Source: a virus
Taxonomy: Duplodnaviria; Caudoviricetes
DNA length: 64,000 nucleotides
Reading direction: 5' to 3' (one strand)
IMG/VR virus record: IMGVR_UViG_3300012122_000001
Coordinates: 8,726-72,725 of that record
The position numbers were made by a program, and so were the translations under genes. Of the stretch, positions 3,667-47,982 are shown piece by piece. The notes beneath the pieces were generated by a model, which searched no databases, was not told the origin of the DNA, and saw only the letters and a program-made list of their open reading frames with translations. The stretch's first letter is position 1. Each line of letters starts with the position of its first letter.

Positions 3667-5208
3667 ATGAGCTCGACCGTCGAAGGGCTCGAGCGCGGAG
3701 TCATCGGCACGGACAAAACCATCCAGAGAATGCACCGTCTGGTCGCGCTGGGAAAGCTCGACCCGACGATCCAGAAGATCGCGACCTGGATCCGCCTGGG
3801 CGTGCCCAAGGACGTGCGCGCCTCGACGAAGCTCGCGGCCGACGCGATCTTCAACTGGGTTCAGAAGCACGGTCTCTTCCAGCGCGACCCGTTCCAGATC
3901 GAGAAGATCGAGCATCCTATCGAAGCGATGCGGCCGATCATCGAGGCGCGCAAGGCCGGGACGTACACCGGACCGGCGCTCTTCGTCGGCGACTGCGACA
4001 CGATGGCGGGCGTGTACACGGCGAGTTTGCTCGGCGTGCTCGGCTTCCAGTATTCCTTCGAAACCGCCAAGGTCGATCCGGATCGCCCCGACGAGTTCTC
4101 TCACGTCTGGGTCTCCGCGCGGATCGGGAACGAGTGGTACCCGCTCGACCCGTCGACGCGCGGGGCATATCCCGGCTGGCGTCCTCCGGTCAAGCCGGAG
4201 CAGTTCAAACGCTGGCCGGAGGGACCGATCGAAGACGTCGTGAAAGGGTCCGACATGAGCGCATTCAACAGCGGCATGGGGGATAACGGAGAAGACGAAG
4301 GCGGCGACGAGCCCGTCATCGAGAACAACGATTCCCCCCTCACCGGAGTCGACGCCGAGTACGCCCAGGACTACATCGGATACGGGATCCCCAGGGACTT
4401 CGGCAGCGGCCCAGGCGTGATCCCGCCCGGCAACTTCGAGAGCCTCCAGCTCCTTCCGCCGCACGACACGCAGATCCCGGCGGCCGACCTGGAGCGGGAC
4501 ATGCATCTGCTCAAGGCGGCGCCGCGCCTGGACCCGTCCGAACGGATCCAGAGCCTCGCCGGTCAGCCGAACGACCACGGCAACCCCTACTATCGCGGGG
4601 GTGGTCGCCAGCCCTACATCAAGGTCGAGCGCAAGATGTACCCGCCCGGCTCGCGCTGGAACGAGCCGTACGGCAAGGACACCATCCGCTACCAGAAAAC
4701 CGACAAGTACATTTCCGTCAAGAGTCCCGAAACACCCGAAAGACGAGTGGAGGTCAAGATGGACCAGCCGATGCTGATCCGCAGGAGAAACGTCATGACG
4801 CCCCCTCAGCGGATCCCGTTCGGCGCAATGGACGGCATGGGCGACATCGATCCCAATACCGGGATCATGACCTTCGGCTCGACGCCCGCGCCCACGGCGA
4901 CGCAGACGGCAGCGGCGACCGCCGGAACGTCCGTCTGGGATTCGATCCTGGGCGCATTCTCGTCCGTCGCGAAGGCCGCCGGAACGATCGTTCCGTCGGT
5001 GCTCCAGTCGAAGACCGCGCAGGCCGTCGCGAGCGCGACGAACCGTCTCGCGGGCTCGAACGTGCTGACGGCCGGGCAGCTCACCAACCCGACGCCCTGG
5101 TACAAGAACCCCGTCACGATCGGCCTGGGGCTCGCCACGCTCGGCGGCCTGGGCTACGTCGTCATCAAGATGCGCCCCGGCATGGGCGGCCGGAGGCGTC
5201 GCCGGTAG
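3667..5208 (+). CDS. transglutaminase-like (papain-fold Cys-His-Asp) enzyme with C-terminal membrane anchor; candidate maturation protease
   Basis: GDCD, SHVW and PLDPS triad motifs; C-terminal hydrophobic helix IGLGLATLGGLGYVVI plus RRRRR tail. Confidence 0.8.
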   Translation: MSSTVEGLERGVIGTDKTIQRMHRLVALGKLDPTIQKIATWIRLGVPKDVRASTKLAADAIFNWVQKHGLFQRDPFQIEKIEHPIEAMRPIIEARKAGTYTGPALFVGDCDTMAGVYTASLLGVLGFQYSFETAKVDPDRPDEFSHVWVSARIGNEWYPLDPSTRGAYPGWRPPVKPEQFKRWPEGPIEDVVKGSDMSAFNSGMGDNGEDEGGDEPVIENNDSPLTGVDAEYAQDYIGYGIPRDFGSGPGVIPPGNFESLQLLPPHDTQIPAADLERDMHLLKAAPRLDPSERIQSLAGQPNDHGNPYYRGGGRQPYIKVERKMYPPGSRWNEPYGKDTIRYQKTDKYISVKSPETPERRVEVKMDQPMLIRRRNVMTPPQRIPFGAMDGMGDIDPNTGIMTFGSTPAPTATQTAAATAGTSVWDSILGAFSSVAKAAGTIVPSVLQSKTAQAVASATNRLAGSNVLTAGQLTNPTPWYKNPVTIGLGLATLGGLGYVVIKMRPGMGGRRRRR

Positions 5209-5213
5209 GTTCG

Positions 5214-5495
5214 ATGCGCTACATCCGCTACGTCAAGAGACCCGGCATCGGAGATTCCGTCACCGACGGACTCACGACCGGCTTCACCGCTTCGGTCGCC
5301 GAGGCCCTGGAGCCGAAGATCCGGACCATCCTGAAGGAGGACATCCTTCCCATGGTGATGGTGGGTCTCGTCGCGGGCGCCGTAGCGGCGTCGGTCATCG
5401 GATCCTGGTTCGCTTCGCGCCCCTCGCGGTCCGGAGTCCGGTCGAACCCGGTCTCCAGGATCCACATCCCTCTGCGTCGCCGGAGGACCGCATGA
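5214..5495 (+). CDS. small membrane protein
   Basis: One hydrophobic helix, N-terminal GIGD motif, basic C-terminus with RSNP. Confidence 0.75.
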   Translation: MRYIRYVKRPGIGDSVTDGLTTGFTASVAEALEPKIRTILKEDILPMVMVGLVAGAVAASVIGSWFASRPSRSGVRSNPVSRIHIPLRRRRTA

Positions 5496-8400
5496 GCTAC
5501 CAGGATCTCAAGTCCAGGATGGTCGCGCACCTCAAGAAGTGGGCGCGTGGAATGGTTGATTCCGGCGAGGGCATGAACTTCAGCATCGAGTCGGCGATTT
5601 ACTGGTTCGCGAACGACTACCACAACGGCGGCGGAAGCGAGCTCTACCAGATCCTCTCGACCTCGAAATTTCGTCCCGGTCCGTCTCATCGGTCGGTCGA
5701 CGATGAAGGCGACGAGATCGACAAAATGATGTACGAGGAGCTGGAGCGGTACTTCATCCCAAAAGGAAGAGCGAGGAACAACGGTCACACGGGCGTTCGA
5801 AAGAACCCTCCGTCCTTCATCCTGATCGACAAAGAGACCGGACTCGTCGTGTACACGAAGCGGGCGACCGGCGTCGGCAGCGCAGCGATCTCGGCTTGCG
5901 TGAAGCGTGGTCACGAGCTCGCGGACCAGCACAACCGCGTCTACACCGTCTTCCTGGACATCCGCGGCCTCTCTCGTGGCATGAAGGTCCATGTCCCGGC
6001 GATCTATGCGCTCGGGATCACCGAAGAGATCCATCCGGGCGGTCAGTCCGTCCGTCCGAATTCTCGCGGCGCCGTACGGAAGAACATCTTCACCTTCAAC
6101 AATCCGAAGCTGAAGTTCAGCGATCTCTCGGTCGGCGAGACGTTCGTGTTCGCCTCCCAGGACGATCCCAAGTTCCTGACCAGCGGAATGGCGCGCGGTC
6201 CGTGGATCAAGCGCAGCGCCAGGACGTACGAACACGTCGACGACGTCGGCAAGCAGATCTCGGAGCGGAGGTACGGCGGCGGCCATATCGCCGTCGGAAG
6301 CGCCTCCGTCGGAGTGAAGCGCATGAGCCTCGGACGGGAACTGCCGAAGCTCTGCCCTCACTGCGACGCCTCGTATATCGGCACGCCCCAGATGCACAAG
6401 TTCGAGTGCGCTCCCCAGGGCGGAGCGAACCTGTACCAGGAGAACCCGCGCCGCAGATCCGCTCGTCGGAACCCCACGATGGGATCCTACGAGGTCTTCG
6501 TCGGGAACATCGGGCAGGTCTACGACGGGAACGATCGGGCGAAGGCGCAGCACTCCTTCGACTACTACGTCGCCATGTCGAAGCGTACCAGCGGTCGCGC
6601 GAGCGGCGAGGATGTCGCCCTCCTCTGTGAAGGCGAACTCAGCCAGGAGTACATCGGAAGCAAGGGACGCGAGCGCGGAGATCATCGGCGCGGCGTCCGC
6701 CGGAACATCTTCACCTTCAACAATCCTCCGTCCGGCCCGGCAGATCCGGCCGCGGCGCGCGAGCTCGAGGTCTACATCGAGAACGACGCCGACCTCTACC
6801 GGCAGCAGTTCGTCCCGATCGTGAAGAATCTGATGCTGAAGCGCCGGAAGGGCGTCTACAACCGCGAGCTGGCGGTCAAGCTCTTCATGTACCTGATGGA
6901 CGCGGGCGCGAAGAAGTACGTCGCCGAGTACGTCCGCTCGTCGTCGCCCGGCGCGCCGATGCCGAAGATCGACGGCACCTTCAACAAGAACACGCGCCTG
7001 ATGGCCGCGCGGTCCTTCCTGGAGTCCTTCGAAGGCGAGGCGGAGCTCGGGAACTACGACCGGATGATCGGTCCGGTCTCGAACCCTCGGGGGGCAAACG
7101 TGCGGAAGAATATCTTCACCTTCAACAACCCGAAGCAGCGTCCTCTGAACGAGATGGAGAACGCTGCCAGTCTGGTCGGCCTGACCGTCACGACCTGGGC
7201 GCCGGGCGACGGCGTGACGCGCTACCGCTTCTTCAAGGCAGGCGGAAGTCGGTACGCCGACTATCACCAGGGCGGCGCTCTCTACACGGCGCTCGGCCGG
7301 AAGGAAGCGATCGCGTTCATCAAGTCGTACGGCGTCGGCCGTAGCCGGATGAATCCGCTGAACCAGAAAGAAATCGAGCAGATGCGCGATCGCGAGAGGT
7401 TCTACGTCGGTCGCTCTCAGAAGTACGGTTCCGAGGGGAAGGAAGCGGATGCCGCTCACTTCCGAGGCGCCGCGCAGGAGAGTCGGAACATTCGCGAGCG
7501 TCACCATGCCAAGGGCACGGATTGGTGGCCGAATCCCCCTGTCTGCTCGAACCCGCTCGTCCGCGGCGACAAGCTTCCTCACAACCTCCGGATGGAAGTG
7601 CGGAATCGGTTCATCTACCGCTGGACGTCCGACAACGATCGTCGCGCCGAAGTCTACGGCCTCTGCCCGCACTGCAAGACGCGGGGCGGGAAGCCCTCCG
7701 AGACCAACATCGCTTGCCGTCAGGTCCACCCGACGATCCCGCTTCAGACGGACGAGCAGTGGCTCAAGACGCACGCCTTCCACGTCACGAAGGCGGGTCG
7801 TCTCAGCGAGCGGCATAACCATGCGGAGCCGGGCTACATGGCCGACGACGAGACCAGGAAGAATCCGATGTCGCGCCGCGAAGCCGCAGGAGAGATCCGG
7901 GAGATCCGCGGCGCGAGAAGCAAGATGCGCTACTTCCATCGGCTCGGCCGTCCGGAAGCTGCCGAGTTCCAGGACGGATACGCTCACGGAGTCGCAGGAG
8001 CGGTTTACCGCCGCGGTCCGAAGTCCGCGCGTCGTGTCGTCGATCGCGCGGTCCGCTCGAATCCGCTCCTCCAGACCGTGATGCTGGCGAATCCTGGATC
8101 GGTGAAGACTTTCAGCGAGATGCAGGACGTGGGCAAGGCGAAGTACGTTGTGAACTATCACGACGGAGTGAAGGTGCATCGCGACGGTAGCCCGTTTTTC
8201 GACATCGCCATTTTCAGCAATCGGGCTAAGAAAGATCAGTTCGTCAGGAAGTTGGAGAGCCTTGGATTTACTCGGGGCGCCCTTCGGAACCCGCCGATCT
8301 CCACGCAGTGGGATCGGATGACGCGCCGCCAGCGCGAGGCGCTCCTGGAGATCGTCGGCTACGATCGTGACTTCTCCGGCGGCATGACGCTGTCCACCTG

Positions 8401-9133
8401 GGGCGCGCTCTCTCCCGCCGCGAAGCGGAAGCTCGAGGCTCAGTGGCTCGACACGACGTCAAGCGGCGGAACGACGCGCCGTCGGCGCCGCTCGCCGGTC
8501 GCGGTGAATCCGCTGACCAGGAAAGAAGCCGCGTCGACGGTCAGAAGCGCAAAGTTCGACCTTCGATACGGGTCGGCGTTCGCGCCCGGACACACGCGAT
8601 CCGGCTCGGCCGGTCGCGCGTTCGGGAAGGCAACGGTCGTTCGTGACTTCGGCCCCAGGTCAGCCGGTCGGGCCGCGAGCAAGATCATGAAGCGTTCCGT
8701 CGACCTGACGCACGCCGTTCGTACGAACCCCGGCATCAAGTACCCGAAACCCGGCACGAAGATGACCGTCGCCCAGGCGATGGACCTCGCGCGCCGGATC
8801 GGCAACAAGGATCTGATCAAGCAGTGCGAGGAAGCCGCGAAGCTCCAGAAGGTCGCGAACCGCGGCGCGAAGGTCGTCATCTGGAAGGAGCTGCCGATCG
8901 GCTCGCCGAACAAGATCGACATGGTGACGGCCTTCGCCCATTACGGCGACTCTCCGGAGACGATGTACCGGCCGCCGAAGGGCTCGAAGAAGGGCCCGCA
9001 TATGTACCGCCACAAATGGGGCGAGGGAACCGGCAAGAAGAAGTCCGTGCCGATCCTGGCGGCGCCCGGCGGCAAAGCACTCATCACGCTGATGGGCAGC
9101 GACCAGAAGACCGGCGATTGGATGAGAGGCTAG
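5492..9133 (+). CDS. 1213-aa mosaic (polyvalent-like) protein with 16 NP motifs
   Basis: ATGA-coupled to the previous gene; unrelated ~50-100-aa modules separated by basic linkers ending in NP; R(K/R)NIFTFNNP occurs three times. Confidence 0.85.
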   Translation: MSYQDLKSRMVAHLKKWARGMVDSGEGMNFSIESAIYWFANDYHNGGGSELYQILSTSKFRPGPSHRSVDDEGDEIDKMMYEELERYFIPKGRARNNGHTGVRKNPPSFILIDKETGLVVYTKRATGVGSAAISACVKRGHELADQHNRVYTVFLDIRGLSRGMKVHVPAIYALGITEEIHPGGQSVRPNSRGAVRKNIFTFNNPKLKFSDLSVGETFVFASQDDPKFLTSGMARGPWIKRSARTYEHVDDVGKQISERRYGGGHIAVGSASVGVKRMSLGRELPKLCPHCDASYIGTPQMHKFECAPQGGANLYQENPRRRSARRNPTMGSYEVFVGNIGQVYDGNDRAKAQHSFDYYVAMSKRTSGRASGEDVALLCEGELSQEYIGSKGRERGDHRRGVRRNIFTFNNPPSGPADPAAARELEVYIENDADLYRQQFVPIVKNLMLKRRKGVYNRELAVKLFMYLMDAGAKKYVAEYVRSSSPGAPMPKIDGTFNKNTRLMAARSFLESFEGEAELGNYDRMIGPVSNPRGANVRKNIFTFNNPKQRPLNEMENAASLVGLTVTTWAPGDGVTRYRFFKAGGSRYADYHQGGALYTALGRKEAIAFIKSYGVGRSRMNPLNQKEIEQMRDRERFYVGRSQKYGSEGKEADAAHFRGAAQESRNIRERHHAKGTDWWPNPPVCSNPLVRGDKLPHNLRMEVRNRFIYRWTSDNDRRAEVYGLCPHCKTRGGKPSETNIACRQVHPTIPLQTDEQWLKTHAFHVTKAGRLSERHNHAEPGYMADDETRKNPMSRREAAGEIREIRGARSKMRYFHRLGRPEAAEFQDGYAHGVAGAVYRRGPKSARRVVDRAVRSNPLLQTVMLANPGSVKTFSEMQDVGKAKYVVNYHDGVKVHRDGSPFFDIAIFSNRAKKDQFVRKLESLGFTRGALRNPPISTQWDRMTRRQREALLEIVGYDRDFSGGMTLSTWGALSPAAKRKLEAQWLDTTSSGGTTRRRRRSPVAVNPLTRKEAASTVRSAKFDLRYGSAFAPGHTRSGSAGRAFGKATVVRDFGPRSAGRAASKIMKRSVDLTHAVRTNPGIKYPKPGTKMTVAQAMDLARRIGNKDLIKQCEEAAKLQKVANRGAKVVIWKELPIGSPNKIDMVTAFAHYGDSPETMYRPPKGSKKGPHMYRHKWGEGTGKKKSVPILAAPGGKALITLMGSDQKTGDWMRG
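6077..7132 (+). repeat. three ~30-bp direct repeats encoding R(K/R)NIFTFNNP
   Basis: Near-identical copies of cggaagaacatcttcaccttcaacaatcc at ~6077, ~6698 and ~7103. Confidence 0.9.
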
Positions 9134-9143
9134 GAGAATTCAC

Positions 9144-10262
9144 ATGATCGGAGCACTTGTATTTGCGAACCCCGGACGGCCTGTAGCCGCTCGGAGGAGA
9201 CGTTCGCGTTCCCGTACCGCCCGCACGACGGGCAGGAGAGTCAAGATGGCACGCACCCGTTCGCGCCGTCGCACCGGGCGGCGCATCCGGCGGAATGCCA
9301 AGGGGCATTTCGTCACCCGGCGCCGGTCGACCCGGCGTCGGCGTCGGAATCCCAGCGGCTTCATCAAGGTCGGCCGCCGCTGGAAGAAGATCACGAAGTA
9401 CGCCCGTCGGCGCCGTCGGGGCAGCCGGAAGGGCCAGATCCGGGCCTTCAAGTTCCCGAAGCGGTATCGGCGGAGCCGCCGGGTTCGTCGGAACCCCGTG
9501 GTCGTCGCCAACCCGCGTCGGAGCCGTAGCCGTCGGGCGCGGCGCAACCCGTATCGGCGTCATCGCCGGTACGTCCGTCGGAATCCCAGCGTCGCGTATC
9601 GGCTGACGTCGGATCCGGTCGCGGCGATCAAGTCGGCGATCATGTCCGCGTTCTCGATGGACACCGTCGAGACGCTGTTCCACATGGGCCTGGGCTTCGG
9701 CTCGTCCATCGTGGTCAGCCGGACGCTGATCAAGCAGTGGCTGCCGGTCCTCGGCGAGACCGCTCTCGGCCGGGTCGGCGGCACGTTCGGGACCGGCGTG
9801 GTCCTGACGGCGCTGTCGAGCTTCCTCAAGAACTCGAGCCTCACGGCCCGGTTCCTGACCGGCTCGCTGTTCGCCACCTTCTGGCAGGGCCTGTCCGAAG
9901 TCGTGTCGGCCTACCAGCCTCAGCTCAAGGAGTTCATCCCGACGCTGTCGGGCGCTCCGGAGACCGAGGAGTTCCGTCGCGCGATCGAGCGGGAAGTTCT
10001 CCGCGAGCTCAAGGGCGGCGTGAACGAATACCTGCCCGCGGCGGGCGCCGAGGGGTACTCGACGTACCTCCGCCCGGCCGGGATCGAGTACCTCCGTCCC
10101 GCCGGGACGGAAGCGTACCTCACCGAAGTGGGCGCGGAGCGCGCCCAGGGAGGCATGGGCGCCTTCCTGACCGACCGCGAGGTCAGTCGCGTCGAAGCCC
10201 GGCCCAGCGGGGTCGGCGAGGACGAGTTCGGCAGGGGCGACACCCTGCCGGAGCGGTTCTAG
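9144..10262 (+). CDS. Arg-rich (protamine-like) core/membrane protein
   Basis: First ~150 aa very Arg-rich with 6 NP motifs (mostly RRNP), then hydrophobic helices, then (E/T/A)YLxxxG repeats; directly upstream of the capsid gene. Confidence 0.8.
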   Translation: MIGALVFANPGRPVAARRRRSRSRTARTTGRRVKMARTRSRRRTGRRIRRNAKGHFVTRRRSTRRRRRNPSGFIKVGRRWKKITKYARRRRRGSRKGQIRAFKFPKRYRRSRRVRRNPVVVANPRRSRSRRARRNPYRRHRRYVRRNPSVAYRLTSDPVAAIKSAIMSAFSMDTVETLFHMGLGFGSSIVVSRTLIKQWLPVLGETALGRVGGTFGTGVVLTALSSFLKNSSLTARFLTGSLFATFWQGLSEVVSAYQPQLKEFIPTLSGAPETEEFRRAIEREVLRELKGGVNEYLPAAGAEGYSTYLRPAGIEYLRPAGTEAYLTEVGAERAQGGMGAFLTDREVSRVEARPSGVGEDEFGRGDTLPERF

Positions 10263-10277
10263 GCATCAATCAAGGAA

Positions 10278-10421
10278 GCCCTGGGAGGGAAACCTCCCAG
10301 GGCCTCCCCCAGGGCGGCCCAGTGCGGGCCTTCCTGGGGGAGTCGGGCAGGTAAGCACCAGCCCGTCCCGGTGGGATGTAGCAGCAGGCCGAGAGGCCGC
10401 TTGAGGTCATTGTGACCTCAA
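10278..10421 (+). other. structured intergenic leader upstream of the capsid gene
   Basis: Hairpins GCCCTGGGAGG-GAAA-CCTCCCAGGGC, CTCCCCCAGG...CCTGGGGGAG, GGCC-GAGA-GGCC and TTGAGGTCA-TTG-TGACCTCAA. Confidence 0.7.
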
Positions 10422-10457
10422 CCCGCAGAATGGTGCTTGATCAAGGAGATCGAGAGT

Positions 10458-11096
10458 ATGCCTCCTCCCATGGATGCGGGCGCGCCGATCCAGGTCGTGC
10501 AGCCCTACTACAAGATCGTGCAGGGCGTTCCTGCGGCGATCGTCCGGTCGTACAAGCAGCCCCTGTACGACTCGGAAGTGATCCTCTCCGCGTCCCCGAC
10601 GCGGGAGTTCACGCTGTACTCGAAGCCCGTCGGCCAGATGCTGAACGACGCGGCGACGACCAAGACGTTCGTCCACTCGAACCAGACGCAGGCCGGGTCG
10701 CTCGGCACGCCTCTGAGCTTCGACGTGTACGGCTTCAACAAGCGCGTCTGGGGCGGCGTCGCGACCAAGGTCATCACCATCGGCAACTCGACCCTGGTCG
10801 AGGCCGCGGGCGTGGCCGAGGTCATCTTCGGTCAGGACACGAAGTTCCTGACGATCCCGATCGAAGACGTGCCGTCCGGCGTGGACTACGAGGGCATGGG
10901 CGCGACCGATGCGCCGCACATCGGCCTCGGGCAGTCCGACAACCTGTACCGCTTCGACGTGGGCGGTCGGGCGCTGCACATCAACTCGACGGAGCCGTAT
11001 CAGGTCAAGATCTCCTGGCCGTCGAGCCTCTCCGGCATCACCGGCAACCTGCTGTTCCGGTGGTTCATGCGCGGAATCCTTTACAAGGGCGTCTAG
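10458..11096 (+). CDS. putative single jelly-roll major capsid protein
   Basis: AAGGAG SD supports the start at 10458. Beta-rich, with a PLYD...PVGQ...KT...N...G.LGTP.SF.V.G pattern and C-terminal YQVKISWP...MRGILYK strands, recalled from Thermus P23-77/IN93-type capsid proteins (not searched). Confidence 0.6.
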   Translation: MPPPMDAGAPIQVVQPYYKIVQGVPAAIVRSYKQPLYDSEVILSASPTREFTLYSKPVGQMLNDAATTKTFVHSNQTQAGSLGTPLSFDVYGFNKRVWGGVATKVITIGNSTLVEAAGVAEVIFGQDTKFLTIPIEDVPSGVDYEGMGATDAPHIGLGQSDNLYRFDVGGRALHINSTEPYQVKISWPSSLSGITGNLLFRWFMRGILYKGV

Positions 11097-11129
11097 AAAA
11101 AACGTCCTTGTGCCTTCAGGCGCAACTTC

Positions 11130-11156
11130 GGGTGGCCCCTTCGGGGGCCATCCCTT
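11130..11156 (+). terminator. UUCG hairpin after the capsid gene (partial terminator or mRNA stabiliser)
   Basis: GGGTGGCCCC-TTCG-GGGGCCATCC 10-bp stem; weak U-tract. Confidence 0.6.
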
Positions 11157-11238
11157 GATGAGCCCGACGAAGAGTCAGTAGCGTCCCGCACTGTTCGCGG
11201 TCCGCTTCCCTGCTGAGTTAGCTCGGAAGGAGACGACG

Positions 11239-12192
11239 ATGAGCTGGTCCCAGGTTCCGACATTCCTCCGCATCTCGGACAAGGATCCCGATCCCAAGAA
11301 GCGCGGGATCATCTACATGAACCCGGCGAAGGACTGGGTTCAGCCGTTCGAGCTGACGGTTTCGAAGCCGAACCAAGTCATCCGTCTCGCCGCGGGCGAG
11401 CAGCGCGGGCCCTTCCCGCTGACGGCGCAGTACGACGGCCCGATCGAGGTCTTCTACGTCAAGGCCAACGTCTACGAGGACGACGACGGGGAGCCCGGCG
11501 CCCTGGTGAACTCGTACGACATCGACGTGCTCCTGGAGCATCCGGGCAAGCGGATCCAGTTCATGAACCGCTTCGTCCCGCTCGACGCGATGTCCGGAAA
11601 CGCCGGGCTGCCGTACGTCCTGCCGGAGACGATCTTCATCCCGCCGGTCCAGTCGCTCAACCTGACGCTCGTCAACAACGATCTCGCCAACGCGCGGCAC
11701 GTCGAGTTCGTCCTGGGCGGCATCAAGTTCTACCCGAACATGGCGCCGTCCGAGATCCGCGGCGAGACCTGGAAGTACGTCGACCGCCGCGAGCGGACCT
11801 ACGCCTACCTCATGACCACCGACGAGGAAGCCGTCGTCGCCGCCTCGGCCACCACGCCCTTCTTCATGACGATCCCCGACAACGCGGATCTCGAGGTCTT
11901 CAAGCTGACGGCCAAGGCGACCGCCGCCTTCCGCTGCCGCGTGCGCGACGGTCAGAACGACCGCGCCCTCACCGGAGACCTCGTCCACTCGGCGCTGCTC
12001 TTCGGCGGCCACCAGCCGCTCTCGGGCAACGCTGCGGTCACCGGATCCGGCGGTCTCTTCCCGGCACGCTGGGCGACCTCGTGGCTCATCCGGCGGTCGA
12101 CGAAGGTCCAGCTCGATCTCCAGGACATCAGCGCCGCGGAGAACGAGATCAAGGTCATCTTCGGAGGCAGAAAGATCAGCTATGTCAGCTAA
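11239..12192 (+). CDS. putative double jelly-roll capsid protein
   Basis: Visible internal duplication: the halves end in VEFVLGGIKFY and IKVIFGGRKISY, each preceded by G...P...LP/W...I...L.L.N/D; all-beta pattern. Confidence 0.6.
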   Translation: MSWSQVPTFLRISDKDPDPKKRGIIYMNPAKDWVQPFELTVSKPNQVIRLAAGEQRGPFPLTAQYDGPIEVFYVKANVYEDDDGEPGALVNSYDIDVLLEHPGKRIQFMNRFVPLDAMSGNAGLPYVLPETIFIPPVQSLNLTLVNNDLANARHVEFVLGGIKFYPNMAPSEIRGETWKYVDRRERTYAYLMTTDEEAVVAASATTPFFMTIPDNADLEVFKLTAKATAAFRCRVRDGQNDRALTGDLVHSALLFGGHQPLSGNAAVTGSGGLFPARWATSWLIRRSTKVQLDLQDISAAENEIKVIFGGRKISYVS

Positions 12193-12892
12193 AAATCCGC
12201 CTCGCCCTCCTCGGCGCCCCAGGCGCGGAGGAATGGGCGATGACCAGTACTTCTACGAGGGATGGCGCGACGCAGGCCAGGGGGAACCCAGGCCGATGGA
12301 CGTCGTGTCCGATCCCAACTGCCCGCCGCCCAAGGAAGCGCAGCAGTGCGGGAAGGTCAAGCTCAACTGGGTGAAGTTCCCGGCCTTCAACCAGCCGCCG
12401 TTCTTCGCCAAGCCGCTCATCAAGGCCCGGTCGTCGCTCGTGATCCCGGCCGGGGACATCGCGCTCATCTTCGACCGCGAGATCGCCGATCGCCAGCGTG
12501 CGATCGTCTCTCTCGTCGGGATCGACGTCGCGCCGATCGCGCCGCTCCTGAACTCGCAGCTTGAGTTCTGGTTCCAACTCGGCCGCCAGGGCGTTCCCGA
12601 AGTTTCGAAGAACGTCATTCCGGTCTGGGACGACCAGAATCCGACCGGCTACGGCGGGTCGACCCCGATCCAGTCCGGCCGGACGACCGTGTGGCCCGGT
12701 GTCGCGACCCCGGAGGAGTTCTTCAAGAACGGCCTCCAGTTCGGCGTACGCGGCCGGGGCCAGCTCCAGGGACTCATCGAGAACAAGTCCGCCGTCGACG
12801 TCACGGTCCGCGGGATCCTGGGTTACTACTACTACTGGTCCAGCGGCCCTGGTGGTGCCTCGGAGTTCGAGGCCGGAGATTTCCAGGCGTAG
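12182..12892 (+). CDS. putative penton / minor jelly-roll protein with basic leader
   Basis: Leader MSAKNPPRPPRRPRRGGMGD, then a beta-rich domain ending VDVTVRGILGYYYYW. Confidence 0.5.
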   Translation: MSAKNPPRPPRRPRRGGMGDDQYFYEGWRDAGQGEPRPMDVVSDPNCPPPKEAQQCGKVKLNWVKFPAFNQPPFFAKPLIKARSSLVIPAGDIALIFDREIADRQRAIVSLVGIDVAPIAPLLNSQLEFWFQLGRQGVPEVSKNVIPVWDDQNPTGYGGSTPIQSGRTTVWPGVATPEEFFKNGLQFGVRGRGQLQGLIENKSAVDVTVRGILGYYYYWSSGPGGASEFEAGDFQA

Positions 12893-12901
12893 GGAGAATC
12901 G

Positions 12902-13381
12902 ATGCCCGCACCACTGAACCCTAACCTCTGGCCGTCGGTCCTCCACGATGAGGACGGCAACCCGATCTCGGCAACGAATCCCCTGCCCGTAACGGGGCCG
13001 GGTGGCGGTCCGGTCGAGAACGTCCTCACCCAGGTCCGGCAGGTCCAGAACGAAGAGACCACCACGCCCCTGGGGGCCGGTGCGACCTTCAACGGCGCCG
13101 ATCGGGACTGCGAGAATTACGAGAGCTTCGGAATCTCCGTGTTCCTCGATCCCGACGCCGGGCAGGCACTGAACTGTTCGGTCCTGGTCGAGAACAGCAT
13201 CGACGGCGTGACCTGGAGGACGGTCGACACGGTCTCCGTCGCGGGCGCCGCTGATGCGTCATCGACCCTGAACCGCGTCTACTCGGTCACGCGCCGGTTC
13301 TACCGGGTCAGCGTGATCAACAACGACGGATCGAACGGACTCGACGCGACCGAAGTCATTTCGATGATGAAGCCCATCTAA
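12902..13381 (+). CDS. spike/vertex protein A1
   Basis: Beta-rich; N-terminal ~33 aa nearly identical to the 15180 protein. Confidence 0.6.
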   Translation: MPAPLNPNLWPSVLHDEDGNPISATNPLPVTGPGGGPVENVLTQVRQVQNEETTTPLGAGATFNGADRDCENYESFGISVFLDPDAGQALNCSVLVENSIDGVTWRTVDTVSVAGAADASSTLNRVYSVTRRFYRVSVINNDGSNGLDATEVISMMKPI

Positions 13382-13645
13382 ATGGAGAAGCTCTGCAAGG
13401 ATCCGTCCTGTATGGTCGAGGTCCGCGACGGTGAGGCGGCGTCTGAGAAGCTCTTCCTTGATCAGACAAACGGTCGCGTGATCTCCCTGGTGCGCCACGA
13501 GGTCTGCGCGGAGAAGTACACGACGCCGGGATCAAGGTTCCGGCGGATCTCCCAGGACGAGAAGAAGGCGCTGCTGTCCCCCGCGTCGGCTCTCAAGAAC
13601 GAGCTCGCTGCGAGGCAGCGCATGAAAGTCCAGGTGGTCAAGTGA
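13382..13645 (+). CDS. small Zn-binding protein Z1
   Basis: CKDPSC...HEVC motif; paralog-like to 14868. Confidence 0.6.
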   Translation: MEKLCKDPSCMVEVRDGEAASEKLFLDQTNGRVISLVRHEVCAEKYTTPGSRFRRISQDEKKALLSPASALKNELAARQRMKVQVVK

Positions 13646-14867: not shown

Positions 14868-15176
14868 GTGGCTGAGATCATCTGCAACGTCTGCCAGCTC
14901 CCGATCAAAGACCCGGCGGAGCAGATCGACCGCCTCTACGTCATCACCGCGAACAAGATGAGGCCTCTCCCGGCGCAGAAGAAGCACGACGCCTGCGCGG
15001 AGGTGTACGAGCGCAAGCGTGGACTCCAGCGTCGGTACCTCAAGACCGGTGAGTCGAAGCTCCCGGAGCTTGTCAAGACGCCTCCGGTGAGGCGCACGCC
15101 GCAGGAGAAGACCGCTGATGCTGCCGCCCTGGAGGCGGTCATCGCGCAGCAGCAGGCCGCCGCGAAACTGAGGTAG
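14868..15176 (+). CDS. small Zn-binding protein Z2
   Basis: CNVC...HDAC motif. Confidence 0.6.
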   Translation: MAEIICNVCQLPIKDPAEQIDRLYVITANKMRPLPAQKKHDACAEVYERKRGLQRRYLKTGESKLPELVKTPPVRRTPQEKTADAAALEAVIAQQQAAAKLR

Positions 15177-15179
15177 AGA

Positions 15180-15623
15180 ATGCCCGCACCACTTAATCCA
15201 AATCTCTGGCCGTCGGTCCTGCATGACGAGGAAGGGAACGTCATCAACGGGACAAATCCGCTGCCGGTCACGGGACCAAGCGGCCCAGGCAGCGCCATTT
15301 CCGTCAAGGGATCTCCTGGGGCCACGATCACGACTGACCCGGATGTCGCGGTGCCCGGAACGGGCGGCACGGTTCCCCTGGGCCCGATTCCCGCGGGAAC
15401 CCGCCGGATGTACGTCCAGAATGCCGGACCGGCCGGAACCTGGGTTCGCGTCCGTGAGGTCGGCGGGACGGCAGGATCCGGCAGGCTTCTCCCGCGCCTG
15501 GGCGAAGCCATCTACGGCGGCGCCGACGGCGCCCTGGCCCAACTTGAGGTCCAAGACGTCTCCCTGGCGGTCGGGTTATCCGCGGTCGCGACAGTCATCG
15601 CGGTTCAGTACGAGGGAGACTAA
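15180..15623 (+). CDS. spike/vertex protein A2
   Basis: Starts MPAPLNPNLWPSVLHDEEGN...NPLPVTGP, as in 12902. Confidence 0.6.
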   Translation: MPAPLNPNLWPSVLHDEEGNVINGTNPLPVTGPSGPGSAISVKGSPGATITTDPDVAVPGTGGTVPLGPIPAGTRRMYVQNAGPAGTWVRVREVGGTAGSGRLLPRLGEAIYGGADGALAQLEVQDVSLAVGLSAVATVIAVQYEGD

Positions 15624-18836: not shown

Positions 18837-20900
18837 ATGGGACTCTTCGCTGGTCCTGGTCCGATCCAGGTAAAGTCCTTCATAACCAATCCCCCGACCT
18901 ACGGTATCGCGCAGATCGGCGTTGCCAAAAACTTTGCCGGATTTATTGCCGTCAACAGTCACTCGAGCTACTTGGTCGATCCCGACAGTCAGGCAACCTA
19001 CGGGTTCGAGCCCATGACCACCGGCTCGATGGTCATCACGTTCTTCCGGATGTACGGGTCCGCGGGGCAGATCACGCTGACGTACTCGACGTCGCCCGGA
19101 CCCGCGACGCCTCTGGGCGCGAATCCGGGCGTCGACTATACCGCCGTCTCCGGAACGCTGGTCTGGACCGATGGGGACATCGCTCCGAAGACCGTATCGA
19201 TTCCCCTGCTTCCGACTGCCTACACCATCGGGTTCCCGAACAACTTCTTCTACTTCAACATCGACAGCGTCGTGGTCGCCGCTCCGAACCCGACCGTCTA
19301 CGTCTACATGGGCGGAAACGACTTCAACGGCGGGAATCTGGAACCGTTCCCGAGCGGACTCTACGCCACGAGTTACACGTTCCCGGCCCTCATCATCAAG
19401 CGGACGGTCGGGAGCGCCTACTTCGTTGGATCTCCGTATTCCGTCCAGCGTCCAGGCGGGACGACGACCGTGACGCTCCAGGTCGTTCGGGCCGACAACG
19501 CCGGAGGGTTCAAGGGGGCGGTTCAGGTCAGCTACCACACCACGGACGGGACCGCCATCGCCGGTGTCGCCTATACCACAAAGACAGGGACGATCTCCTG
19601 GGCCGACGGCGTCGGTGGCGCACAACCGATCACGATCACGATCCTGAACGGCGGAGCCGGAACGCAGAGCTTCACCGTCACGATCGACAACCCCACGAAC
19701 GGCCTCACGATCATCGTCACCCCGACGGCCACCGTGAACATCACGGCCGGTGCGCCTCCGGCGAACCCGACCTCGTCCGGAGCTATCCCCAATCAGGTGG
19801 TGGATCTCGAGACGTTTGCCGACCCAAATGGACACACGCAGACCGTCCCTAACCCAATCCTCGTCCAAGACTCCTTGAGCTACTACAACCGCAACTTCCT
19901 GATCAACTCCTACGCGACGACCGGGATCCGACCGGACCTCAACGCCGTCTTCTTCATCAGCACGACGGTCGGATGGTTCGTCGGGGATGGCGGCATGATC
20001 TTCAAGACCACCGATGCCGGTGTCACCTGGGTGCAGCAGACGAGCACGGTAGTCGTGGAGCTCGAGGACGTCTTCTTCGCCGATGCGAACAACGGATGGG
20101 CGGTCGGCGCCGACGGGACGATCCTCGTCACGACGAACGGCGGAACGGTCTGGACGGCTCAGACGAGCGGCGTCGCCACGAGGCTGAACGCCGTCGGCTT
20201 CATCAGCAGTACGAACGGCTGGGCCGTCGGGGACGGCGGCGTGATCCGCGTCACCACGAACGGCGGCGGAACGTGGTCCCTCCAGGCAAGCGGCGTCGTC
20301 ACGGACCTGAACGACGTCTACTTCGTGGATGGCACCCACGGCTGGGCCGTCGGGGACGGCGGCGTGATCCTCTTCTACAACGGCACGACCTGGGCGGCTC
20401 AGACGAGCGGAACGCTGGTCAACCTGAACGGCGTGACCTTTACGAGTGCGACCAGCGGATGGGCCGTCGGAGACGACGGGGTCATCCTCTTCTGGAACGG
20501 CACGATTTGGGCGGCCCAGGTGAGCGGAGTCTCGACACAGATCGATCTCCGTGAGGTCGATTTTGCCAGCGCGACCGTCGGATGGGCCGTTGGGACGAAC
20601 GGCACGATTCTCGCTACCACGAACGGCGGGTCCACCTGGACTCCGCAGACCAGCGGAACGACGAACGACCTCAACGGTCTCGCCGCGGCCAGCACCTCGA
20701 TCGCCTGGGCGGTCGGTGACAACGGCACCATCCTCACAACGGCGAATGGCGGGACGACCTGGACTCCACAGGCAGCGCCGCTCCCCATTGGATCGAGCGG
20801 CGGAAACGGTGGAAGCTTCGGCGGCGGCGACGACTTCGCCAACTACGACCAGGGATTCTCGCAGAGCGGATTCCTGAAGTTCCAGGGAGCTATTTACTAA
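18837..20900 (+). CDS. adhesin: two Calx-beta-like domains plus a 7-bladed YCF48/BNR-type beta-propeller
   Basis: DYTAVSGTLVWTDGD and AYTTKTGTISWADG Calx-beta patterns; seven L..V.F.....GWAVG..G.I....NGG.TW..Q repeats (~19935-20775). Confidence 0.8.
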   Translation: MGLFAGPGPIQVKSFITNPPTYGIAQIGVAKNFAGFIAVNSHSSYLVDPDSQATYGFEPMTTGSMVITFFRMYGSAGQITLTYSTSPGPATPLGANPGVDYTAVSGTLVWTDGDIAPKTVSIPLLPTAYTIGFPNNFFYFNIDSVVVAAPNPTVYVYMGGNDFNGGNLEPFPSGLYATSYTFPALIIKRTVGSAYFVGSPYSVQRPGGTTTVTLQVVRADNAGGFKGAVQVSYHTTDGTAIAGVAYTTKTGTISWADGVGGAQPITITILNGGAGTQSFTVTIDNPTNGLTIIVTPTATVNITAGAPPANPTSSGAIPNQVVDLETFADPNGHTQTVPNPILVQDSLSYYNRNFLINSYATTGIRPDLNAVFFISTTVGWFVGDGGMIFKTTDAGVTWVQQTSTVVVELEDVFFADANNGWAVGADGTILVTTNGGTVWTAQTSGVATRLNAVGFISSTNGWAVGDGGVIRVTTNGGGTWSLQASGVVTDLNDVYFVDGTHGWAVGDGGVILFYNGTTWAAQTSGTLVNLNGVTFTSATSGWAVGDDGVILFWNGTIWAAQVSGVSTQIDLREVDFASATVGWAVGTNGTILATTNGGSTWTPQTSGTTNDLNGLAAASTSIAWAVGDNGTILTTANGGTTWTPQAAPLPIGSSGGNGGSFGGGDDFANYDQGFSQSGFLKFQGAIY

Positions 20901-29975: not shown

Positions 29976-31079
29976 ATGGAGCAGAGCGAGCTGATCACGG
30001 AGTTGGACGGGGACGGAGTCCGCTTCGTCGGATTCGAGAACCCGTCGCCGTTCCTGGCCCGGACCGTCATCAACCGGAACGAAGCCTACCTGATGCTCCA
30101 GGGCCACACGATCGACGTCGAGATGAAGGCCGGGAAGGATCCCGTGCTGCGGCTGTCGCCGGATCTCCGCTTCCAGTACATGACCGAGGCGGACATCGAC
30201 CCCAAGACGAAGATGCCGCGGGTCATCAGGAAGAAGGGCGGCGAGGTCAAGATCCACCACTCGCACATGGACGAGTTCGTCCTGACGGCGCCGTCGCTCT
30301 TCACCAAGACCTCGAAGATGTCGGCCGCCTCATGGTCGATCCCCGCCGGTCCCCCGTCCGTCGGCGGCGCCTGCGCCTCCGCGGAGCTCTTCAAGAGCGC
30401 GGGCGCCTACAACGTGGCGCTCCGCCAGGGCGAGGTCGAGCAGCGCCCCGTCTCGAAGCCGGACTGGATCTGCCAGTACTGCTACGCCGGGAAGTCCAAC
30501 TACATGCACCGGACCTCCCAGTACTCCCAGACCGCACGCTGGATCTGGATCTCCGGCATGGTCCAGCACCTGGGCCTGGAGGGCGCCGTCGAGAAGATGA
30601 CGGAAGCCCTCAAGTTCCACCAGGGCAACGTGAAGAACCGGCAGCGCGCCGGAGAGAACCCGAACTTCTTCCGGATCCACGACAGCGGTGATTTTACGCT
30701 GTCCCCCAACACCTACCTGCTCTGGTCGATGGTCGCCAGGGAGATGCCGGACGTCAACTTCTGGGCGCCGACCCGCATGTGGACCTTCCCGAAGTTCAAC
30801 GAGATGGTCCGGTCGAATCCCGCGCCCGAAAACATGTCGATCCGGCCGTCGGCCCTCCACTTCGAGGACGCGGCGCCGGGCATCGACGGCTTCGACGAGG
30901 GGTCCTCGGCCCACCACATCGAGACGGATCCGGTCAAGGAAGGGATCGCCCAGTGGATCTGCCCGGCGTACCAGCACGACGGCCACACCTGTGCGGGCGC
31001 GGGCGGGCCCAAGGGCGAGAAGGACTGCCGGGTCTGCTGGGTCCACACCGACATGTCCGTGTCCTACAGGAGCCACTGA
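29976..31079 (+). CDS. Gp88-like (radical-SAM-related, Cys-cluster) phage protein
   Basis: C...C..CYA, FRIHDSGDF, FWAPTR, N.SIRPS and CPAY...C...CRVCW motifs. Confidence 0.7.
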   Translation: MEQSELITELDGDGVRFVGFENPSPFLARTVINRNEAYLMLQGHTIDVEMKAGKDPVLRLSPDLRFQYMTEADIDPKTKMPRVIRKKGGEVKIHHSHMDEFVLTAPSLFTKTSKMSAASWSIPAGPPSVGGACASAELFKSAGAYNVALRQGEVEQRPVSKPDWICQYCYAGKSNYMHRTSQYSQTARWIWISGMVQHLGLEGAVEKMTEALKFHQGNVKNRQRAGENPNFFRIHDSGDFTLSPNTYLLWSMVAREMPDVNFWAPTRMWTFPKFNEMVRSNPAPENMSIRPSALHFEDAAPGIDGFDEGSSAHHIETDPVKEGIAQWICPAYQHDGHTCAGAGGPKGEKDCRVCWVHTDMSVSYRSH

Positions 31080-45955: not shown

Positions 45956-46747
45956 CTACCGGATCTTTCCAAACGCCGCGGATACCTCGTCCTCCGTTGT
46001 GTGGCTGTACACCTTCAAGAGCTCGATCGACGCCCACCGCATCTCCTGGCGGATCGTGTTGGGGTCCAGGCCGGACCGAACGAGCCTACTCGCGCGGGTA
46101 TGCCTCAAGATGTGAACAAGGCTCGCCCGATCCGGTTTGATCTTGTCGAGGATCCGCTCGAACGTCCTCTGGAACGTCCTCTTCGCCATCGGGAAGAGGA
46201 GGTCGTCCGGCTTCATCTTCTTCGACCAGAGCTGGAGCTCGACGACGAACTTGCCTTTGTTGTCGAGGTGGACCGGCAGCAGAGGATGCCCGGCCTTCTT
46301 GAGCGTCGGGATCCGGACGATCGACAGCGGGCCGTCCTTGAACTCCAGGTGCCTCTTGCGGACCAGGAGCGTCTCCCCGCAGCGGCATCCGGTCTCGAGC
46401 GTGAAGCGCAGGCCGACTCCGAACGGCTTCTCGAGCTTGAAGGATGCGGCCAGGACTTTCGAGAACTCCGCGTCGTTCAGGAACTTCCTCGAGTCGAGCG
46501 AGGTCGACGTCGCGCTCGAAGCGGTCCCCTTGTAGTACTTCGACCGGCAGCAGCCCGCCACGCAAGTGATGATCTTGTCCTTCCGGCCGGAGACCTTCAG
46601 AGTCTTCTTCTCGCAGACGTGATCCTTGGCAGTGCAGGTCTTCGCGCGCCCCACCATGTTGAACCGGGCCATGAACTCCCGGTTGCAGACGTGGCAGACC
46701 GCGGGAACGTTGTACTCCTTGTCGACTTTGTCGATCTTCTTCTTCAC
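45956..46747 (-). CDS. tyrosine recombinase with Cys-rich N-terminus
   Basis: TGCR..E, TLK, HILRH, RW.SI and VYSH catalytic pattern; GTGA-coupled start. Confidence 0.9.
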   Translation of the reverse strand: MKKKIDKVDKEYNVPAVCHVCNREFMARFNMVGRAKTCTAKDHVCEKKTLKVSGRKDKIITCVAGCCRSKYYKGTASSATSTSLDSRKFLNDAEFSKVLAASFKLEKPFGVGLRFTLETGCRCGETLLVRKRHLEFKDGPLSIVRIPTLKKAGHPLLPVHLDNKGKFVVELQLWSKKMKPDDLLFPMAKRTFQRTFERILDKIKPDRASLVHILRHTRASRLVRSGLDPNTIRQEMRWASIELLKVYSHTTEDEVSAAFGKIR

Positions 46748-47982
46748 TTCGGTCCAAAGGGGTTGATTGCCTGGAGGCTCTCGATGGGCAACAGCGGCGC
46801 TCCCGCGATCTTCCTGGCCTTCAGAAACACCCCAGGGAAGGTCGGGATGTCCGACTCCAGGGTCACGATCTCCATGTCCGCGAAGATCTTCTTGAACTGG
46901 TCGATCGTGAAGCGCCAGTGATCCTCGGGATACGGGTGGTACGGGAAGCCGGGCGACCGGGTGGTGATGACCAGGAGGCCGCCGGGCTTCGTCACGGCCT
47001 TCAGTTGCATGACGGCCTTGCGCCACTCCTTGACGTGCTCCATCATCTCTGTCGAGATCACCACGTCGAAGCGGTCCTCGCCGAACTCCTTCACGAGGTC
47101 GTTGACGCTGACGACGCGATCGACGCATGGGCCGGTCTGAGAGTCGACGCCCAGGTACGACTTCGGGCCGAGCTTGTCGACGACCGTCCGCGGCGTCCCG
47201 TTCACGTTGTAGCTCCCGACTTCGAGCACGGTCTTCTTCGTGACCTCGAACTCGGTCAGAGCCCTACGCAGAAAGTCCATGGCCGATGGGTGCATGTCAT
47301 CCCTCCAGTATTTTTTCCACTCGGAAATCTTCGCGTCCGTTACGCTGCCGTTGTTGTAGAGCCACTGCGGGCCCACGTTGTCCTGGGTCAGCCTCCCCAT
47401 CTCCCCCCATCGGAAGTGCATTCCCGGATATCCCTCGACGCCGTAGAGGCTCTTCTCGATCCGGCGCCAATTCCGCATGAAGAGGTCGCGGTGCTTCAGC
47501 CAGAAGAACGTTCCGGCGTAGCACCAGGAGGATCCTCCGTGCTTGATCGCGTGCCGGAAGCATCCGATCGCCGGGTACTTCTGGAGCAGCCGCTCGATCG
47601 ACGGGATGGACTCGAGGTTGAGGATGTACATCGCGCGGCACCAGTCGCGGATCGCGTCGACCTGCTTCCCGGTCCTGGTGACCCCCTTCGCGTGCGCGTA
47701 GAAGGTCGCCTCGTCCGGATCTCTCGACTCGAGGCGCCCCAGGGTCTCGATGAAGAGCCTCGTCTCCCCGAGCTCCCGATCGTTTCGCTCGAAGGAGACC
47801 TCGGCGTCGAGCCGCTCCAGGGCCTCGGTCACGACTGCCTTGGACTCCGTCTCCTTGTCCATCACGACGGTGATGATCCGGCGCCCGTTCCAGGCGCTCC
47901 GGTATTCCAGGAGTCGGTCGACGTGCCATCTCCAGATCGATTCCTTCTTCGGGTACAGGTGAAACAGAAGGTTCCTTTTCAT
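46744..47982 (-). CDS. glycosyltransferase-like domain fused to a SAM methyltransferase
   Basis: N-half YAHAKG...W...M...GTFFW pattern; C-half VLEVGS.NVNG, FDVVISTEMMEHV, KPGGLL and P.H.YP.D.WRF. Confidence 0.7.
   Translation of the reverse strand: MKRNLLFHLYPKKESIWRWHVDRLLEYRSAWNGRRIITVVMDKETESKAVVTEALERLDAEVSFERNDRELGETRLFIETLGRLESRDPDEATFYAHAKGVTRTGKQVDAIRDWCRAMYILNLESIPSIERLLQKYPAIGCFRHAIKHGGSSWCYAGTFFWLKHRDLFMRNWRRIEKSLYGVEGYPGMHFRWGEMGRLTQDNVGPQWLYNNGSVTDAKISEWKKYWRDDMHPSAMDFLRRALTEFEVTKKTVLEVGSYNVNGTPRTVVDKLGPKSYLGVDSQTGPCVDRVVSVNDLVKEFGEDRFDVVISTEMMEHVKEWRKAVMQLKAVTKPGGLLVITTRSPGFPYHPYPEDHWRFTIDQFKKIFADMEIVTLESDIPTFPGVFLKARKIAGAPLLPIESLQAINPFGPK

Follow-up and report, generated by a model that had tools for sequence, protein, structure and literature searches.

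We analysed a 64,000-nt stretch of the viral record IMGVR_UViG_3300012122_000001 (IMG/VR), hereafter the window, which comprises bases 8726-72725 of the 72,725-bp record; all coordinates are given in window numbering. The record carries a 123-bp terminal repeat and was therefore taken as a complete genome. Its G+C content is 63%. A block of approximately 33 kb on the plus strand (874-33154) contains a module of three adjacent genes, g212, g317 and g219 (Table 1), and the remainder of the genome is encoded on the minus strand. The second gene encodes a protein predicted to form a double jelly roll (DJR), in which two similar halves lie in one chain. The three open reading frames had been proposed from the letters alone (the sequence-only reading), and they proved sound: all are present, their G+C content at third codon positions (GC3) is of the coding type (0.86-0.93), and each has dozens of homologues.

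Homologues of g317 formed 107 clusters (43-85% identity), those of g212 69 clusters (50-93%) and those of the third protein 42 clusters (49-85%). An exhaustive HMMER search extended the g317 family to 151 representatives at 50% clustering, reaching down to approximately 20% identity. Most homologues of the third protein begin to align at the Met encoded at 12233, the start of a 219-aa product. The order 212-317-219 was kept in all eight of the close IMG/VR loci fetched, and the pairing of a g212-like with a g317-like gene persisted in relatives at approximately 30% identity. Among the distant loci, a g212-like gene also lies directly upstream of the DJR gene in L016, two genes (84 and 316 aa) intervene between the 212-like and 317-like genes in L003 and L004, and L017 contains a distant homologue of the third protein (E 1.7e-11). 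Within the same genomes, g212 was better conserved than the DJR protein (79-83% versus 71-76% identity). The longest contigs with close relatives of g317 measured 64-75 kb. All examined contigs bearing the family were viral-looking or lay in a metagenomic bin, and a scan of a genome collection returned a single match, a 14-kb contig in a metagenome bin.

No Pfam, PHROG or PDB sequence match was obtained for g212, g317 or the third protein; the PDB searches were performed with single sequences and with profiles. Scanning the neighbouring genes against Pfam and PHROG likewise yielded no usable match. Additionally, tblastn of g317 against 50,697 phage records gave zero matches. GC3 was 0.93 in both g212 and g317, and among the larger genes only 29976-31079 was higher (0.95), hinting at high expression of g212 and g317. 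The untranslated leader before g212 and the spacer between g212 and g317 were predicted to fold into unusually stable RNA structures, with -73.7 kcal/mol for 10310-10457 (z -4.5) and -60.9 kcal/mol for 11097-11238 (z -3.2); none of 200 shuffles was as stable in either case. No sigma-70 promoters or T-run terminators were found in the scan around the module.

Structure models were built with AlphaFold2 (AF2) for g317 and g212. The model of g317, based on a 74-sequence alignment, reached a mean predicted local distance difference test score (pLDDT) of 91.5 and a predicted template modelling score (pTM) of 0.88. It consists of two beta-sandwiches joined by a linker helix. Moreover, each half of the model contains a short helix (residues 115-118 and 251-254), and the two are equivalently placed. 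Both barrels of DJR capsid proteins and DUF2961 proteins have a short helix after strand F or F' (PMC8812541). The two helices of g317 may correspond to these post-F/F' helices.

The whole chain of g317 was compared with known structures by an exhaustive VIA-align search, and Foldseek was also run. The highest scores were obtained for the GH172/DUF2961 group (8ic8, 4kq7 and 7v1v), namely a GH172 arabinofuranosidase (Z 11.6, 242 residues aligned), DUF2961 (Z 11.1, 236 residues) and difructose dianhydride synthase (Z 10.8, 246 residues). These were followed by the capsid protein of STIV (Z 10.7, 231 residues, 4.2 Å), PRD1 P3 (Z 9.5, 239 residues), PHM (Z 9.1, 217 residues), PM2 P2 (Z 8.8, 217 of 269 residues), PNGase F (Z 8.7, 238 residues), the phiCjT23 capsid protein (Z 8.2, 200 residues) and the FLiP capsid protein (Z 7.2, 208 residues). 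The capsid proteins of PBCV-1, EhV-201 and Faustovirus were also among the matches. Foldseek assigned a probability of 1.0 to PHM, PBCV-1, STIV and PM2. This set of matches corresponds to the DJR proteins of cells and viruses as defined by Krupovic et al. (PMC8812541). Hence the DJR fold of g317 is well supported by the model, and the earlier suggestion that the 317-aa protein is of the capsid DJR type was borne out by the confidence of the model and by whole-chain superposition on the STIV, PRD1 and PM2 capsid proteins. The g317 family profile gave no signal against PM2 P2. No model of g317 or a homologue was found in the ESM Atlas; the nearest named clusters there were the PM2 P2_N and P2_C families (0.77-0.78), a lead at most.

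The two halves of g317 were then compared in sequence. For the single sequence, BLASTP of half against half was not significant (E 0.14). With profiles of the near family, residues 45-164 matched residues 195-313 with a score of 38.6 (E 1.2e-5); 60 column shuffles reached at most 23.0, and a reversed control scored 13.5. With profiles of the diverse family, the probability rose to 99.8% (E 4.5e-29, score 169 over 120 columns), against a maximum of 15.5 in 40 shuffles. To exclude an alignment artefact, the halves were also compared protein by protein with BLASTP, and 27 of the 74 family members reached E <= 1e-3, the best with 35% identity over 132 residues (E 6e-15). In addition, a hidden Markov model (HMM) of the N half matched the C half of g317 at an independent E-value of 2.4e-20, and the C-half HMM matched the N half at 4.7e-14. 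By the BLASTP comparison applied equally to known capsid proteins, the halves gave E 0.03 for PM2 P2 and 2.3 for PRD1 P3. The sequence-only reading had described the halves as still visibly alike on the strength of two motifs. VEFVLGGIKFY and IKVIFGGRKISY do align with each other, each forming the final strand of its own sandwich, and the halves are homologous by profiles; the likeness is not visible in the single sequence, so the motifs were a lucky but correct cue.

To date the duplication, 148 half-domains (74 N and 74 C) were aligned to one model. In the resulting tree, the 74 N halves and the 74 C halves fell without exception on opposite sides of one branch (support 0.988, length 0.29), which indicates one duplication that predates the diversification of the family. 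Judged from these sequence comparisons, the halves of g317 are the product of one ancient tandem duplication. A recent duplication, as had been supposed at first, is ruled out by the tree: the N/C split is older than the whole family, which spans to approximately 20% identity. Only one DJR gene was found in the present genome by HMM search. One distant relative carries two tandem DJR paralogues of 340 and 310 aa (L018:1395-3349), both of which are two-half proteins.

A derivation of the halves from a g212-like protein was also considered. In hhalign comparisons, g212 and g219 matched neither DJR half nor each other. A descent of the g317 halves from a g212-like single jelly roll (SJR) thus found no sequence support; the kinship of the halves with the putative SJR encoded at 10458, on which the idea of an SJR-to-DJR intermediate had leaned, was not detected (E at least 0.02), a more remote link being beyond the reach of sequence.

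Table 1. Positions of the module genes and associated features in the window
Feature	Position	Strand	Remarks
Arginine-rich protein, 372 aa, net charge +60	9144-10262	+	Candidate genome-condensing core protein; 61-63% identity in relatives
Structured untranslated leader before g212	10263-10457	+	
g212, 212 aa, putative conserved beta-rich virion protein	10458-11096	+	ATG at 10458, seven bases past AGGAGA
Structured g212-g317 spacer	11097-11238	+	GC-rich hairpin with 10-bp GC stem and UUCG loop
g317, 317 aa, DJR protein, probable major capsid protein	11239-12192	+	AF2 model, structural matches
N-terminal jelly roll of g317, residues ~25-166	11311-11736	+	Last strand VEFVLGGIKFY
Linker helix between jelly rolls, residues 171-183	11749-11787	+	DSSP on the model
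C-terminal jelly roll of g317, residues ~187-314	11797-12180	+	Last strand IKVIFGGRKISY
g219/236, third conserved module protein	12182-12892 (236 aa) or 12233-12892 (219 aa, database call)	+	
HerA/FtsK-type ATPase, 642 aa	44109-46037	-	Pfam DUF87/HerA 3.3e-10; phrog_2666 'terminase large subunit' 5.3e-13; Walker A GGGKS

The nearest cultured relative of the virus is the Salisaeta phage SSIP-1, a distant one. SSIP-1 is described in reviews as tailless and membrane-containing, with a T=49 capsid, a 44-kb genome, PRD1-type architecture and two types of major capsid protein (PMC6356626, PMC6260650, PMC4958249, PMC5332951). In its record, the structural genes gp46 (211 aa) and gp47 (256 aa) are neighbours and lie downstream of a structural protein of 2,319 aa. 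When the DJR family HMM was searched against the 35 SSIP-1 proteins, gp47 was the best match (E 1.6e-6), followed by one at 0.23, and hhalign of the g317 family against gp47 gave probabilities of 45-65%. In BFVD, the best match of the g317 model was I1ZBI0 (256 aa; E 2.7e-9, template modelling scores (TM) of 0.59 for the query and 0.71 for the target), and that of the g212 model was I1ZBH9 (211 aa; E 2.9e-4, TM 0.38, from a poor model). I1ZBH9 and I1ZBI0 are consecutive accessions whose lengths are exactly those of gp46 and gp47, from which we infer that they are these two proteins. The homology of g317 to gp47 is weak in bits but consistent over three methods. Moreover, the 513-aa product of 3667-5208 matched the SSIP-1 structural protein gp34 (BLASTP 2.5e-8). 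The core of this 513-aa protein is transglutaminase-like, and a membrane helix lies at the C terminus; the protein also matched the Transglut_core gene of the distant relative L003 (1.6e-18).

The two viruses share adjacent structural genes for proteins of ~211 and ~256-317 aa downstream of a very large structural protein, as well as a circular-type double-stranded DNA genome without tailed-phage hallmarks. They differ in genome size (43.8 kb versus 72.7 kb here), and identity is near zero outside the linked genes, with one BLASTP match between the proteomes. In addition, the DJR protein here is 60 aa longer than gp47, for gp40, the proposed packaging ATPase of SSIP-1, no homologue was found here, and the third gene (219 aa) showed no match to gp48. 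Reviews have tentatively grouped SSIP-1 with the single-barrel viruses whose capsids contain two SJR proteins (PMC5332951, PMC6260650). The model of g317 argues that the gp47-type protein is instead a fused double barrel, contrary to that grouping. This suggests that the only cultured relative was wrongly placed among the viruses with two single-barrel capsid proteins.

Compared with the major capsid proteins of prokaryotic Bamfordvirae (STIV B345, PRD1 P3, PM2 P2, FLiP and phiCjT23), g317 likewise carries two jelly rolls side by side within a single chain, and superposition extended over 200-239 residues at 4.2-5.0 Å (Z 7.2-10.7). A smaller gene for a beta-rich partner stands beside the DJR gene, as do the penton genes of those viruses. 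In contrast, no sequence similarity to g317 was found in these proteins, and the halves of PM2 P2 and PRD1 P3 are not alike in sequence, whereas those of the g317 family are strongly alike. The genome here is also several times larger than those of PM2 (10 kb) and PRD1 (15 kb), and its candidate packaging ATPase is a 642-aa protein encoded away from the capsid module. The two jelly rolls of DUF2961 proteins remain mutually similar (PMC8812541), a trait that g317 shares. Unlike the GH172/DUF2961 proteins, g317 has no Pfam match and is encoded in a viral late operon. Finally, the Helvetiavirae (P23-77 VP16/VP17, HHIV-2 and HCIV-1) likewise have a pair of conserved, adjoining genes for capsid-type proteins that differ in size. 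Their capsid proteins match one g317 domain only (Z 8.5-8.8 for single g317 domains against those of HHIV-2 and HCIV-1, and 7.1 against P23-77 VP17), and the larger protein here is a fused side-by-side DJR rather than a single barrel with a tower, so that the pair differs from two single vertical jelly rolls with a gene each.

The product of g212 was less clear. Its AF2 model had a pLDDT of 58.8 and a pTM of 0.56, with ~10 strands and one helix. PDB matches stayed at noise level (Z <= 5.2) and included the STIV penton protein and jelly-roll coats such as that of a comovirus. In the ESM Atlas, the model matched its own viral family (TM 0.54) and single GH172 sandwiches (TM 0.43-0.49). Of the SJR fold assigned to it by the sequence-only reading, the beta-rich character is seen in the weak model, while the SJR itself was not confirmed at this confidence; an SJR is plausible from a low-confidence model. 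g212 is a candidate penton or second capsid protein and, by its position, the counterpart of SSIP-1 gp46.

That an SJR-like gene adjoins a DJR gene had been taken as a possible sign of a capsid intermediate between the two types. In PRD1, the gene of the penton protein P31 stands beside that of the capsid protein P3, and DJR viruses normally have an SJR penton gene next to the gene of the DJR capsid protein. Standing side by side, the genes here therefore do not point to a mixed or intermediate capsid and do not show the virus to be an SJR-to-DJR intermediate.

We consider it likely, with a probability of roughly 0.7, that the three genes are the core shell module of an uncultured, probably tailless icosahedral virus distantly related to SSIP-1, comprising the DJR protein and two partners. 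The g317 protein would most likely form pseudo-hexagonal trimers that tile the facets, by analogy with known DJR capsid proteins. g212 and g219 would be co-inherited shell partners, one of them probably the five-fold vertex (penton) protein and the other probably a cement or vertex-associated protein or a second abundant capsid protein. The highly basic proteins encoded just upstream, including that of 9144-10262, probably condense the DNA, and the HerA/FtsK-type ATPase encoded elsewhere is a candidate packaging motor, the only one found. That the duplication still shows so plainly in sequence is put down to slow or symmetrical evolution of the family, not to a recent origin.

Several observations weigh against this interpretation. 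The best structural matches of g317 are cellular GH172 enzymes, within one Z unit of the viral capsid proteins; since the two tie, the fold alone is no proof of a capsid role. The link to gp47 amounts to 18.4 bits in sequence, and g212 was not significantly similar to gp46 (hhalign probability 3%). The ATPase is remote from the capsid module and lies among early-type genes with an integrase alongside, and the Atlas clusters of the g317 family are auto-labelled Uroviricota. Another capsid protein may also have gone undetected in the late operon, as only g317 and g212 were modelled.

The idea raised by the sequence-only reading, that g212 is a second, SJR major capsid protein that builds the lattice together with the DJR protein, is unlikely, though it accounts for several features of the locus. 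The reviewed SSIP-1 capsid is of the PRD1 type with two major capsid protein types (PMC6356626, PMC4958249, PMC5332951), and its gp46 and gp47 are adjacent structural proteins. Here, g212 is the better conserved of the pair, shares the high GC3 of the DJR gene, stays with that gene down to approximately 30% identity and is bracketed by unusually stable RNA structures that could set dosage. The two major species reported for SSIP-1 and the conservation of g212 together make a capsid of two major proteins possible. The same conservation would also fit a penton or cement protein with many contacts, the g212 model is weak, and g212 has no sequence relation to either DJR half. To our knowledge, no virus has facets made of both SJR and DJR subunits, which also counts against a shared lattice.

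If g317 is a DJR protein without being the main shell protein, it could be a virion enzyme or spike of a carbohydrate-active or glycan-binding kind with kinship to GH172/DUF2961, or a minor capsid protein, with the true capsid protein among the other open frames. The enzyme scores at the top of the structural search, the richness of the genome in glycosyltransferases and several late proteins of 270-400 aa outside the modelled set all suit such a role. We regard it as improbable, since neither g317 (E <= 0.1) nor any of the 74 family members (E <= 0.01) matched Pfam GH172/DUF2961, the Z values of enzymes and capsid proteins are tied, the examined contigs of the family are viral-looking or binned from metagenomes, and the SSIP-1 counterpart gp47 is annotated as a virion structural protein. 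Strong conservation and codon bias also suit an abundant shell protein. It is still more improbable that the virus is a tailed phage with overly divergent hallmarks in which the three genes encode parts of the decoration, baseplate or fibre. The Uroviricota labels would fit it, as would weak tail-protein PHROG matches downstream (e.g., phrog_17517, E 8e-4 for 12902-13381) and the match of the HerA-like ATPase to a PHROG named terminase large subunit. However, no terminase, portal, HK97 capsid or tail families were found in Pfam or PHROG scans of 50 of the larger open frames, and tape-measure and sheath/tube families were likewise absent from the larger frames scanned; the ATPase is of the HerA/DUF87 type by Pfam and not of the terminase fold. 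Furthermore, the nearest cultured relative is tailless, and the fold matches of g317 are shell proteins in which both domains are covered. Thus the DJR shell module of a probably tailless virus remains the explanation that we prefer.

The origin of DJR capsid proteins is debated between fusion of two viral SJR genes and inheritance from cellular DUF2961-like proteins (PMC8812541). The question has so far been argued from structure. The g317 family makes the duplication measurable in sequence, so that half-domain phylogenies and comparisons with cellular DJR proteins become possible. A further proposal, which we find doubtful, is that SSIP-1-like viruses carry a near-ancestral, sequence-symmetric DJR as close to GH172/DUF2961 as to viral capsids, perhaps with an abundant SJR partner (g212/gp46) in a very large lattice. 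If true, it would provide the first sequence-level handle on the origin of the DJR capsid protein, it might place the duplication that gave rise to the DJR within the SSIP-1-like lineage, independently of other DJR viruses, and it would reveal a shell of both SJR and DJR major subunits. The genomes of this family (64-75 kb) contrast with 10-44 kb for the bacterial DJR-type phages checked (PM2, PRD1 and SSIP-1). No description of 64-75-kb SSIP-1-like viruses or of a sequence-symmetric DJR capsid protein was found in the searchable literature. Already known are the DJR fold and viruses of the SSIP-1 type; the large genomes, a duplication visible in sequence and the reclassification implied for SSIP-1 are new.

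Elsewhere in the genome, genes recognised by Pfam or PHROG included a Prim-Pol/D5 primase-helicase, an AAA_24 ATPase, a DEAD_2 helicase, a tyrosine integrase, ThyX, an SprT-like protein, several glycosyltransferases and methyltransferases and the 642-aa HerA/DUF87-type ATPase, for which a PDB sequence match was absent. The tyrosine integrase (45956-47128, minus strand; Pfam 4.3e-13) adjoins this ATPase, which suggests that the virus is probably temperate. Membrane helices were predicted in several small late proteins.

Upstream of the module, 5492-9133 encodes a 1,213-aa protein with a net charge of +78, another candidate DNA-condensing core protein. Downstream, the products of 12902-13381 and 15180-15623 share a near-identical N-terminus of 35 residues (86% identity, E 1e-19) and have unrelated C-terminal parts; small Cys-containing frames (13382-13645 and 14868-15176) accompany them, directly or one gene on. 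This arrangement resembles a duplicated cassette in which alternative spike or receptor-binding proteins share an anchoring peptide. Additionally, 18837-20900 encodes a 687-aa late protein with a Calx-beta domain (Pfam 1e-14) and BNR/Ycf48-like beta-propeller repeats (8e-24), and it is a candidate spike or host-recognition protein.

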